Assembly (NCBI GenBank): GCA_039794845.1
Contig: JAUQVK010000016.1
Span: 1-44,322, forward strand
Origin: Thermostichus sp. DRC_bins_24
Lineage (GTDB): Bacteria > Cyanobacteriota > Cyanobacteriia > Thermostichales > Thermostichaceae
Length of the DNA stretch: 44,322 nucleotides
Reading direction: 5' to 3'
Shown here in pieces: positions 1 through 41,549 of this stretch; the stretch's first letter is position 1, and each line of letters opens with the position of its first letter. Position numbers and translations under genes: made by a program. The notes under the pieces were generated by a model. The model made no database searches. It was given only the letters and a program-made list of their open reading frames with translations, and was not told the DNA's origin.

Positions 1-140
1 GCCGGGGAACGGAAACCGCCTACCAAGTCGGTCTGTCGGGGGTTGCCGACCTGGATCGGTGGCGTGGGGCAGGAATGCTCAAGAGCAATCTTGGGAAGCC
101 CGCGCTCTACCCGCTAGGCATTGCGTCGGGAGGATGTCAC
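1..140 (+). mobile_element. Right end of an IS200/IS605-family (TnpB) element; frame +1 encodes a probable TnpB C-terminal tail ending at TAG 115-117
   Basis: Frame 1 reads AGERKPPTKSVCRGLPTWIGGVGQECSRAILGSPRSTR*. It is followed by an imperfect hairpin and GGATGTCAC, paralleling the end of the intact tnpB element at 21786-21830 (..TR* tacccgTtagg..GGATGTCAA). The gene body is outside the window. Confidence 0.7.
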
Positions 141-141
141 T

Positions 142-319
142 TACAGCCCTTTATGCCCAGGGCACACCGGCGTGTCCGCTAGTCACATGTAACAACTGTG
201 GAAGTTTGTAACAACTGTGGAAGTTGAGATCCACTCTCTAGAAGGATGGCCCTCCGGGCTCCGCGAAACGGCAGTAGGAATCACAATCCCTGCTGTAGAG
301 AACCCGCGCAAGGCCTGTA
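142..319 (+). mobile_element. MITE-like element, family A, copy 1
   Basis: Terminal inverted repeats TACAGCCCTT...AAGGCCTGTA with TA at both ends. Homologous to 33226-33382 and 36200-36409. Internal 19-bp tandem duplication TGTAACAACTGTGGAAGTT at 188-206 and 207-225. Confidence 0.8.
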
Positions 320-4237: not shown

Positions 4238-4328
4238 CGCACAGCGTGGTACTAACCGTAGCCTCTCTCCCAGAGCGGGAGAGGGGAATCAGAAAGTGTA
4301 TGTCCTTGTTTGGGTTTGGAGTGACTAT
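4238..4328. repeat. Intergenic repeat family B, copy 1, with CCTCTCTCCC/GGGAGAGGGG hairpin; lies between convergent genes
   Basis: Shares CGTAGCC(T/C)CTCTCC, AGAGGGGA, CAGAAAGTGTAT and TGGAGTGACT(A/G)T in the same order with 33449-33535. Confidence 0.7.
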
Positions 4329-20693: not shown

Positions 20694-21755
20694 CTATGGG
20701 TTTGCCCTCAGGATCTCTCCATTTGTATAGATTCTTACCTCTCCAGCTTGGCACTGGCCGATGCGACGGGCATGGGGGTATCCGGCTTTGTGCAGTTCTT
20801 GCAGCAGGTCCGGGGTGTAGCTGGGATCCACCGCCAACAGCAAGCCCCCGCTGGTTTGCGGATCCGCCAACAGCAACTGCTGCCACTCAGCTAGGGAGTC
20901 TGCCTGTACCCCCTCATAGCCCTGCCAATTGCGGCGAGCCGCTCCCGGAAAGATCCCCGCCTCCGCCAGGGAAATGGCCTCCGCCAAGATAGGAATGGAG
21001 GGCAGATCCAGACGGGCCCCTACCCCTGAGCCGTGGCAAACTTCCAGCAAATGCCCCAGCAGCCCAAACCCTGTCACATCCGTCATGGCGTGGAGCTGCG
21101 GTCGCTCGGCCAGTTGGGATCCGATGCAATTGAGCTGGGTCATCACCTGCAACACTTCCCCATAGCCTGCCGCACTCAGCTGGCCTTTTTTTAGAGCCGT
21201 GGTCATCACCCCGATCCCCAGTGGCTTGGTCAGGATCAGGTCATCCCCGGGCTGAGCGGTGGCGTTGCGCCGGATGTGTGCCGGATGGGCCAAGCCTGCC
21301 GCCACCAGGCCAAAAATGGGTTCGGGAGAATCGATGGAGTGCCCCCCCGCCAAAGGGATCCCGGCTGCTTGGCAGACCTTCATCCCTCCGGCCATGATCC
21401 CCTGAATGGCTGGCATCGGCAGGGTGTTGATCGGCATGCCCAGAACCGCCAGCGCCAAAATCGGCGTTCCCCCCATCGCGTAAACATCGGAAAGGGCATT
21501 GGTCGCCGCGATGCGACCAAAATCCACCGGATCATCCACGATCGGCATGAAAAAGTCGGTGGTTAAGATCAGGGCCTGGCTGTCATTGAGCCGATAGACG
21601 GCGGCATCATCACGGGTTTCTGCCCCCACCAACAGCGCCGGATTGGCCGCCAGCAGAGGCATATCCCTGAGAATTTGCTGCAATTGAGCCGGGGCAATTT
21701 TGCAGCCGCAGCCGCCACCGTGGGAGTACTGGGTGAGGCGAATTGAGGCATCCAT
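20694..21755 (-). CDS. selD: Selenide, water dikinase (Cys-type)
   Basis: RLTQYSHGGGCGCKI, DDAAVY, TTDFFMPIVDDP..FGRIAATNALSDVYAMGG, GGHSIDSPEPIFGL, DPQTSGGLL. Confidence 0.96.
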   Translation of the reverse strand: MDASIRLTQYSHGGGCGCKIAPAQLQQILRDMPLLAANPALLVGAETRDDAAVYRLNDSQALILTTDFFMPIVDDPVDFGRIAATNALSDVYAMGGTPILALAVLGMPINTLPMPAIQGIMAGGMKVCQAAGIPLAGGHSIDSPEPIFGLVAAGLAHPAHIRRNATAQPGDDLILTKPLGIGVMTTALKKGQLSAAGYGEVLQVMTQLNCIGSQLAERPQLHAMTDVTGFGLLGHLLEVCHGSGVGARLDLPSIPILAEAISLAEAGIFPGAARRNWQGYEGVQADSLAEWQQLLLADPQTSGGLLLAVDPSYTPDLLQELHKAGYPHARRIGQCQAGEVRIYTNGEILRANP

Positions 21756-21785
21756 GGGGGTGGGAAAACATCGCTTGGTTTTACT

Positions 21786-21830
21786 TTGACATCCACTCCC
21801 AGCAACCCTAACGGGTATGCAGGGAGATTC
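21786..21830 (-). mobile_element. Right end of IS200/IS605 element / 3' part of the TnpB omegaRNA scaffold
   Basis: Minus-strand hairpin CTCCCTGCATACCC-GTTA-GGGTTGCTGGGAG (21796-21826) followed by GGATGTCAA, ending in the TCAA typical of IS200/IS605 right ends. Confidence 0.75.
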
Positions 21831-23061
21831 CCTGGGTCGCCCCAAGGATTTCCTGCTTCAACGCCAGCCAGCTAGACTGGGTGACCCCAGCCCCCGCCGC
21901 CCCGACTCCACAGGCATTTTCAGTTCCCCGTTGCCCACGGGTACAAATCACTTGAGCCGCTGCCACATCCCGGGCCTTGATTGACCCGCACTCAGGACAG
22001 TGGTGGATCCGAGTTGAGAGGTCTTTTCTGACCTCCGCCCCGCAATCCGGGCACTCCTGAGACGTACCTCTCGCATCCACCTTGGCGTAATACACATCCC
22101 GCTTCCAGCACACCCACGGCAAAATCCGGTTCACAAATTGCCCCAGCCCCGCATCGAGGATGTGCTTGCCCAGCATCCCCTTGGCCATGAGGCGAAAGTC
22201 CAAATCTTCCACAAACAGCATCCCTGCATTGTCGCAGAGACGATGGGCCAGCTTGAAATGCCAGTCCTTGCGGATATCCGTGAGGCGCTGGTGTACCCTG
22301 CCAATCTTCTTCTGGAGCTTGTGCCAGTTGTTTGACCCCTGGCGCTTAGTCTTGAGCCTGCGTTGCAGCAATTCCAGCTTGCGGTGCAGCTCATTGAAAA
22401 AGCGGGGTCGCTTGACTTGCAGCCCGTCAGAAGTCGACAAGAAATACTCCAGCCCGACATCAATACCGACTGGGTGTCCGTGAGGGTGCGGGTCGGGGAT
22501 ATTGATATCCGCCTCAAGGCTCAACAGGACAAAATACCCAGATGCCTTACGGACAATCTGGGCCTGCTTCACCCGAAACCAATCAGGAATCTGCCGTGAC
22601 CAGCGCACCTTGACCAACCCAAGCTGGGGTAACTTAATCCCCTCGCTCGTGATGCAGTTCTTCAGCATCTGCGGGAAAACGAAGCTGCGCATCCGATTTG
22701 GCTTTTTGAACCGTGGCAACCCAGATCGCTTAAGCCGCCACGACTCCCACGCTGCCTCCAGGCTACGAATAACCTGTTGAAGCACCTGGGCGTTCGCGGT
22801 CTTGAGTCTAGGGAAATCGGCCTTTGCCGCTGTCAGTGACTTGCACTGCCGAGCATAAGAGGGAAACGGCGTATCCAATGGCAAGATGAACTCCTGCCGA
22901 ATGGAACAGGCATTGATGGCGCACTTGCGGGAATCCAGCCAGTCCTTGCGTTCCCGCAGGGCAAAGTTCCAGACCTTGCGACACACATCAAGAATGTGCT
23001 CAATCTCTGAAACCTGCGCCTCAGTTGGCTCTAGCTTAAATTCCCACGTCAGGTTTAGCAT
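21808..23061 (-). CDS. tnpB: RNA-guided endonuclease TnpB (IS200/IS605 family); no tnpA adjacent
   Basis: N-terminal HTH; RuvC residues in GIDVGL, FVEDL and ARDVAAA all present; Zn finger CPDC..CPEC; no GGGATCCC seen inside. Confidence 0.93.
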   Translation of the reverse strand: MLNLTWEFKLEPTEAQVSEIEHILDVCRKVWNFALRERKDWLDSRKCAINACSIRQEFILPLDTPFPSYARQCKSLTAAKADFPRLKTANAQVLQQVIRSLEAAWESWRLKRSGLPRFKKPNRMRSFVFPQMLKNCITSEGIKLPQLGLVKVRWSRQIPDWFRVKQAQIVRKASGYFVLLSLEADINIPDPHPHGHPVGIDVGLEYFLSTSDGLQVKRPRFFNELHRKLELLQRRLKTKRQGSNNWHKLQKKIGRVHQRLTDIRKDWHFKLAHRLCDNAGMLFVEDLDFRLMAKGMLGKHILDAGLGQFVNRILPWVCWKRDVYYAKVDARGTSQECPDCGAEVRKDLSTRIHHCPECGSIKARDVAAAQVICTRGQRGTENACGVGAAGAGVTQSSWLALKQEILGATQGISLHTR

Positions 23062-33203: not shown

Positions 33204-33225
33204 TTTTTTATCCTCTTGTTATCAT

Positions 33226-33382
33226 TACAGCCCTTTATGCCCAGGGCACACTGGCGTGTCTGCTAGTCACGTGTAACAACTGTGGAAGTTGAGATCCGCC
33301 CCCCAGGGATGGTGCTCCGCACCTCGCAGAGCGAGAAAAGGAAGCACAAGCCCTGCCGTAGAAAACCCGCGCAAGGGCTGTA
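33226..33382 (+). mobile_element. MITE-like element, family A, copy 2
   Basis: Perfect TIRs TACAGCCCTT...AAGGGCTGTA; 33225-33251 is identical to 141-167; lies 22 bp upstream of hisF. Confidence 0.82.
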
Positions 33383-33448: not shown

Positions 33449-33535
33449 CGCGCAGTGTGGCACCGGGCGTAGCCCCTCTCCTGCTTTGGTAGAGGGGAGC
33501 CAGAAAGTGTATCGCTCTTGTGTGGAGTGACTGTA
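33449..33535. repeat. Intergenic repeat family B, copy 2
   Basis: Homologous to 4238-4328; ends TGGAGTGACTGTA. Confidence 0.7.
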
Positions 33536-36199: not shown

Positions 36200-36409
36200 T
36201 ACAGCCCTTGCGCGGGTTTTCTACAGCAGTGCTTGTGCCTCCTGCTCCCGCTTTCGCAGGGCCCGGAGGGCTATCCTTAGAGTGGATCTCATTTCTCATT
36301 AGCGTGGATCTCAACAGAGTGGATCTCAACTTCCACAGTTGTTACACGTGACTGGCGGCGCCTTATGGTGGGCAAATACCCCAGCGTGCCCCGGGCGTAA
36401 AGGGCTGTA
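36200..36409 (-). mobile_element. MITE-like element, family A, copy 3 (inverted)
   Basis: TIRs TACAGCCCTT...AAGGGCTGTA; internal triplication of GTGGATCTCA and an extra ~17 nt in the left hairpin region. Confidence 0.8.

Positions 36410-38798: not shown

Positions 38799-41549
<2,751 letters not shown>

Follow-up and report, generated by a model that had tools for sequence, protein, structure and literature searches.

The window, by which we mean the whole 44,322-nt stretch of Thermostichus sp. DRC_bins_24 DNA that was analyzed, is the start of contig C16 in an assembly of 3.50 Mb and 115 contigs (C-numbers refer throughout to contigs of this assembly). It opens with the right end (RE) of a tnpB element of the IS200/IS605 type, assigned here to a sub-lineage designated IS-A. 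One base beyond the RE lies a TA-flanked MITE, two further copies of which are located some 33 and 36 kb downstream. The features discussed below are as follows.

1-140, + strand: RE of the IS-A element and 3' part of the predicted omegaRNA scaffold, delimited by 8 in-genome copies, related loci and alignment with the RE of intact relatives; its 5' side is cut by the contig start
3-182, + strand: TnpB C-terminal reading frame (...KPALYPLGIASGGCH), with no stop inside the element, ending at TAG 180-182 inside the MITE
19-73, + strand: long-range scaffold stem, 19-23 with 69-73 (compensatory changes in 3 of 5 pairs)
78-95, + strand: hairpin, 78-84 with 89-95 (compensatory changes in 6 of 7 pairs)
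99-130, + strand: terminal stem, 99-102 with 127-130, and inner stem, 111-112 with 117-118 (compensatory changes in 4 of 6 pairs)
141-156 (to 160 if 20 nt long), + strand: predicted omegaRNA guide, positioned from the RE boundary
142-143, no strand: left TA of the target duplication of MITE copy 1
144-317, + strand: body of MITE copy 1, with inverted ends CAGCCCTT... and ...AAGGCCTG
318-319, no strand: right TA of the same duplication
33226-33382, + strand: MITE copy 2 (TA 33226-33227, body 33228-33380, TA 33381-33382); T33225 completes the 27-nt identity with copy 1
36200-36409, - strand: MITE copy 3 (body 36202-36407, TA on both sides)

Right end of a tnpB element at the contig start

The sequence at nt 1 to 140 recurs at C25:1-141 (139 of 141 positions identical), C59:421-584, C17:9540-9652 and C4:1-162, as well as in C28 and C53, and C21 also matches it, at 85% identity. 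All in-genome copies share the terminus GCGTCGGGAGGATGTCAC, and the sequence beyond it is unrelated from one copy to another. Eight in-genome copies with divergent flanks fix the RE boundary after ...GGATGTCAC; the bases that follow are T, T, G, A, T, G, T and G, and because they differ from copy to copy, we placed the boundary after nt 140. A scan of one genome per species recovered 71 related loci in genera from Nostoc to Spirulina, many of them at 81 to 89% protein identity, and in 44 of the 71 the terminal 18-mer (with up to 4 mismatches) stood just after the gene and was followed by unrelated flanks. In the 8 in-genome copies and the 44 external loci alike, the RE is thus sharp, has the form ...GGATGTCA(C/A), lacks a target duplication and borders on diverse flanks, which upholds the TnpB-type right end that a first-pass annotation had proposed at the start of the window. 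We conclude that nt 1 to 140 is the RE of a copy of a tnpB-only element that belongs to the IS200/IS605 family and has expanded recently. The high protein identity of this TnpB family extends across distant cyanobacterial genera (loci L068 to L096) and to a bin labelled Chloroflexaceae; this distribution suggests recent horizontal spread, or mis-binning.

The element resembles tnpB-only (IS1341-type) IS200/IS605-family members as well as the OMEGA systems of ISDra2 and IS605/IS608 in that its sibling copies encode OrfB_IS605, zinc-ribbon TNB and HTH domains. It further shares with the tnpB-only members a lack of inverted ends and of target duplication, the sharp right end, and a conserved structured RNA that overlaps the 3' end of tnpB. 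It differs in that no tnpA adjoins the visible copies: a single PF01797 match to the Y1 transposase TnpA was found genome-wide (C103:11473-11631), it was weak (21 bits; 34.8 with its in-frame neighbors), and none was found beside the visible copies. Sub-lineage IS-A departs from the family in two additional respects, namely, a TnpB frame without an in-element stop and visible gene bodies that are broken. Elsewhere in the genome, we observed miniature derivatives of the element that retain the left end and the right end only (~117 to 195 nt), each located after TTAAC (C115:50332-50450, C115:45529-45645, C24:21901-22043 and C92:32570-32764). They resemble the miniature IS200/IS605 derivatives known as palindrome-associated transposable elements; none of them is in the window, and the repeat matched by the guide is a different one.

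The tnpB body and left end of the window copy are absent from the assembly, and none of the assembly contigs ends with the opening 127-mer of C16. The first 127 nt are exactly common to C16 and C25, and the smallest contig of the assembly is 2,526 nt long; from these two facts we infer that the assembly probably broke at a 127-mer branch and that a short contig carrying the IS body was filtered out. Contigs C90 and C10, which carry left ends, were considered as partners of C16 and rejected, as synteny pairs them with C94 and C115. A synteny comparison to G004, which at 81% identity is the nearest relative, gave no body either, the neighbor of the ABC-transporter gene in that genome mapping to the interior of C72. 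In a survey of the genus, nt 1 to 140 was matched in 5 of 12 genomes (G000 included), with best identities outside G000 of 82 to 84%, and metagenome scans with a junction 26-mer and an IS-A 24-mer returned 0 matches each. Public-run contigs of X1 to X3 break at the repeats. X1 has one loose end before nt 4, which shows a variant upstream sequence resembling the deleted form in L136 and is not assignable to the window copy.

The junction between the RE and the MITE lies 13 nt past the 127 nt that C16 and C25 have exactly in common, and among the 18 listed of 134 public-run pieces, none spans positions 118 to 160; both observations could be taken to mean that the junction is an assembly artefact of the contig start. 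However, a de Bruijn edge running past the 127-mer should require reads that hold both RE and MITE sequence, the loose ends at positions 140 and 141 in the public run would be expected from RE and MITE sequences present in many copies, and the MITE continues unbroken into unique DNA from position 320 onward. We therefore regard an artefact as scarcely credible and treat the junction as genuine.

TnpB, the predicted omegaRNA and a candidate TAM

By tblastn, window positions 6 to 107 correspond, at 71% identity, to residues 391 to 424 (the last 34) of the TnpB of C21, which carries an uninterrupted 424-codon frame upstream of its RE. The C21 protein matched the Pfam families PF01385 (OrfB_IS605; E value, 1.7e-21), PF07282 (Cas12f1-like TNB; 1.9e-18) and PF12323 (HTH_OrfB_IS605; 2.2e-13), scored 296 bits against the NCBIfam model guided_TnpB (NF040570; cut-off, 100) and aligned with ISDra2 TnpB structures in the PDB with an E value of about 1e-29. 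Its motifs GIDLG (204), AEDI (289) and RDH (368) coincide in position with the D, E and D motifs of the TnpB RuvC core, presumably the catalytic triad. Whereas these motifs are present in this more distant relative, the visible IS-A copies offer no intact RuvC D-E-D protein, every visible IS-A tnpB body being frameshifted or deleted. In C43, C53 and C28 the N-terminus is spread over three different frames (two frame changes), and residues 42 to 83 are missing, which matches a 143-nt deletion relative to C21 that C17 shares. The C59 body lacks 136 nt (residues 283 to 326), including the AED glutamate E290, and in C10 the left end is joined straight to mid-gene sequence.

We made two side observations on TnpB reading frames. 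IS-A (window 3-182, C25:1-146 and C4) has lost the in-element stop of its relatives (CCGTAG to CCGCTAG), such that the TnpB frame reaches the end of the element; in C25 the stop is a flanking TAA directly after the RE, and the window frame terminates at a TAG located 40 nt inside the MITE. The window also holds a second TnpB gene on the - strand (21808-23061), an uninterrupted frame of 417 aa that is 47% identical to the C21 TnpB and shares 38 nt at its 3' end with the beginning of the adjacent open reading frame (20694-21845).

The last 230 nt of 33 copies and the window (34 sequences) were aligned and analyzed with RNAalifold. The consensus comprised 18 base pairs, 13 of which showed compensatory changes, and the window sequence can form 17 of the 18, the exception being 22-70 (A-C). 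The terminal stem at 99 to 130 is the hairpin that had been noticed in the first-pass annotation. Rfam returned nothing at gathering score on the window and matches at chance level only on three RE loci. The conserved structure fits the 3' part of a predicted omegaRNA scaffold. The loop of the terminal RE stem carries an insertion of 23 to 25 nt (GTGTTGGCGTTAGCCTGCC...) in 4 of the 8 copies, C59 (538-563), C4, C28 and C53; it is absent in C16, C25 and C17.

A review (PMC13565253) describes the target sequence in the 5' flank as the TAM and, for ISDra2, about 16 nt of the 3' flank as the guide. Adopting a guide length of ~16 nt from the same review, we predict that the guide of the window copy would span positions 141 to 156 and thus be made up of the base T141, the TA at 142-143 and 13 nt from the beginning of the MITE body.

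The left ends of the family point to TTAAC as the TAM. This pentanucleotide is found directly 5' of 9 of 10 in-genome left ends; the tenth, in C53, is preceded by CTAAC, with TTAAC four bases further upstream. Among the external loci with a left-end motif, TTAAC was present in 19 of 20 and TTTAC in the remaining one. A fixed 5-nt TTAAC 5' of the left end is likewise described for IS605 of Helicobacter pylori, the target of which is given as TTTAA or TTAAC in the same review (PMC13565253).

The adjoining MITE and the order of insertions

The 27 nt at 141 to 167, TTACAGCCCTTTATGCCCAGGGCACAC, are exactly identical to 33225-33251, as had been reported at first pass, and a search of the window that tolerated up to 3 mismatches turned up no further occurrence; 100 shuffles gave an expectation of 0. 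Similarity between the two places extends over ~180 nt (141-320 versus 33225-33382), and a third, inverted copy lies at 36200-36409. That copy (36410, - strand) carries 3 mismatches to the 20-mer form of the guide, again as had been stated. Because copies differ in the base that opens the 27-mer but all have TACAGCCC, we place T141 outside the MITE, as a spacer. The RE had been described as fused to the MITE terminus: the two elements do adjoin, but they are separated by this single nucleotide and by the TA duplication, and so the word "fused" overstates their relationship.

A deliberately loose terminus pattern, applied to elements of 95 to 230 nt, yielded 2,732 candidate pairs, and 86 of these, including window copies 1 and 3, had TA on both sides. 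In the TA-flanked set, T occupied position -1 in 48 of 86 cases and A occupied position +1 in 43 of 86; from these flanking bases we conclude that the MITE duplicates TA and prefers T/TA/A sites. BLAST with copy 1 found 142 places, the query counted, on 71 of the 115 contigs; in 92 of these places the match extends over 100 nt or more. In its length (~100 to 210 nt), terminal inverted repeats, TA on both sides, lack of an open reading frame and abundance (~140 places), the family resembles TA-duplicating MITEs of the IS630/Tc1-mariner type, the TA duplication being the one feature that would assign it to this superfamily. We found no autonomous partner with matching ends; two DDE_3 matches were located at contig ends, neither of them with a matching terminus.

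Several further observations concern repeats in the window and MITE sequence at other IS copies. Copy 1 contains a 19-nt tandem duplication (TGTAACAACTGTGGAAGTT, twice; 188-206 and 207-225) where copy 2 has a single unit. Another dispersed repeat (4238-4301 versus 33449-33512; 73% identity over 64 nt) ends in ...AGAAAGTGTAT, its second occurrence beginning ~65 nt past MITE copy 2. Within 39126-40643, three direct 58-nt repeats lie 603 and 774 nt apart and are 67 to 72% alike, and a second pair is found at 39238 and 40612; these probably mark tandem paralogous genes. In C28, the left end of the IS copy is interrupted by a MITE copy (C28:3404-3611). At C43:17480-17560, MITE-like sequence stands in place of the first ~15 nt of the left end, TAM included, the two meeting at a short stretch that they have in common.

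The closest sibling of the RE is 98.6% identical to it, whereas no full-length sibling of MITE copy 1 exceeds 83%; because of this difference, the IS probably inserted beside an older MITE. In the opposite order, the IS would already have been in place, and the MITE would have entered the TTAA of its flank, in which the RE was followed by TTAACAGG; the existing guide would thereby have been rewritten, and the omegaRNA would no longer match the original flank. Consistent with such a history, removal of the MITE and of one TA places TTAAC directly after the RE (the flank would read TTAACAGGTAG...), the MITE prefers T/TA/A, and it did insert inside another IS-A copy, that of C28. Nevertheless, the sibling identities fit an old MITE and a young IS. 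Moreover, given a MITE insertion, a surrounding TTAAC is expected in roughly 10% of cases from site preferences, so the restored TTAAC carries little weight, and relatives yielded neither an empty nor an intermediate site. Taken together, these points make a later MITE insertion unlikely, and we proceed on the reading in which the IS came second.

Matches of the guide to other MITE copies

The first-pass annotation had pointed out that the predicted guide matches another copy of a multi-copy repeat, and the genome-wide counts confirm it. Apart from its own position, the 16-nt guide (141-156) matched 150 genomic sites at up to 3 mismatches (4 perfectly; 32, 44 and 70 with one, two and three mismatches, respectively), and the 12-nt seed was perfect at 44 of the 150. 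It had been proposed on this basis that the TnpB could target the MITE family genome-wide, that is, that a working TnpB-omegaRNA of the window copy cuts or binds dispersed MITE ends in the course of self-targeting, surveillance or homing between copies. In addition to the perfect guide and seed matches, this proposal can draw on an intact TnpB gene elsewhere in the genome, that of C21, whose product carries the D, E and D motifs, and on the MITE pieces that touch other IS-A copies, inserted in the left end of C28 and fused to that of C43.

The TAM, however, speaks against it. TTAAC, TAAC or TTAA-N was found in register 5' of 0 of the 150 guide-like sites, and the genome contains no instance of TTAAC joined to nucleotides 1 to 6 of the guide. 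The 5 nt upstream of MITE copy 2 are TATCA, not TTAAC. Two MITE copies, C45:572 and C67:106642, do adjoin TTAAC, but in each the guide register is missed by one base. Together with the broken state of the visible IS-A tnpB bodies, these results tell strongly against targeting of the MITE family, and we judge it very improbable. The lack of TAM-bearing sites should not itself be read as depletion: TTAAC occurs at a frequency of 4.2e-4 per position, so only 0.06 sites would be expected among 150, and the zero observed is no evidence of selection against cleavage. The depletion test that had been suggested for such selection accordingly has no power here, and we make no claim from it.

IS insertions at MITE ends had been offered as a possible sign of homing. 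The MITE family adjoins only 1 of 40 RE-like genomic ends, the one in the window, and there is therefore no sign of homing into MITE ends, which counts further against MITE targeting. The MITE-type terminus motif TACAGSC was present within 10 nt of 3 of the 40 RE-like ends, versus 0.07 expected. We do not claim an enrichment of MITE ends at right ends from this number, since the motif in C88 lies inside a protease gene and the C59 flank (8 nt away) belongs to a different repeat. MITE ends and RE flanks may still be weakly associated beyond a common preference for TTAA.

A more elaborate version of the targeting idea starts from the overlap between the T/TA/A site of the MITE and the TAM. MITE ends might repeatedly be captured as guides, a C21-type TnpB acting in trans might cut MITEs newly arrived behind TTAAC-T, the IS would in this way keep another transposon family in check or home into it, and the risk of self-targeting would explain the decay of IS-A tnpB. 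We give this scheme as little credence as targeting by the window copy itself.

The explanation that we consider highly probable is that two ordinary mobile elements have become neighbors in a spot rich in TTAA(C) and that the guide copies the MITE terminus as a by-product, with no targeting device involved. Members of the element family insert 3' of TTAAC, and their RE encodes the structured 3' part of a predicted omegaRNA, the guide of which would be transcribed from the flank, from position 141 onward. At this locus, a probably older copy of an abundant TA-duplicating MITE sits one base past the RE, such that the guide copies the MITE terminus; both mobile elements would have used the same AT-rich TTAA(C) spot. 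The short-read assembly would then have broken inside the repeat and cut the RE copy off at the contig start. The only predicted DNA target of the window omegaRNA would be its own empty donor site (TTAAC plus TTACAGCCC...), the normal target of restorative homing, as the other MITE copies lack the TAM; the visible IS-A tnpB genes are defective. Several considerations run counter to this explanation: the window copy, whose tnpB body and left end are absent from the assembly, may have an intact gene or another TAM; the intact C21 relative, with an RE 85% identical to that of the window, might use the window omegaRNA in trans; TAM use may be relaxed; and the possible weak association of MITE ends with RE flanks goes beyond the TTAA preference. 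On the explanation that we favor, the match between guide and repeat is real, but in the absence of the TAM it is not predicted to have any consequence beyond the element's own donor joint.

Two cautions follow for the reading of similar loci, namely, that a match between a guide and a repeat means little without a TAM and that TAM depletion is untestable where 0.06 sites are expected. Were MITE targeting true after all, nature would here provide an example in which the RNA-guided nuclease of one transposon is directed against a different transposon family. For the TnpB family itself, which is 81 to 89% conserved across many cyanobacterial genera, the analysis yields a scaffold supported by covariation and, as read from the flanks of its left ends, a well-supported candidate TAM, TTAAC.
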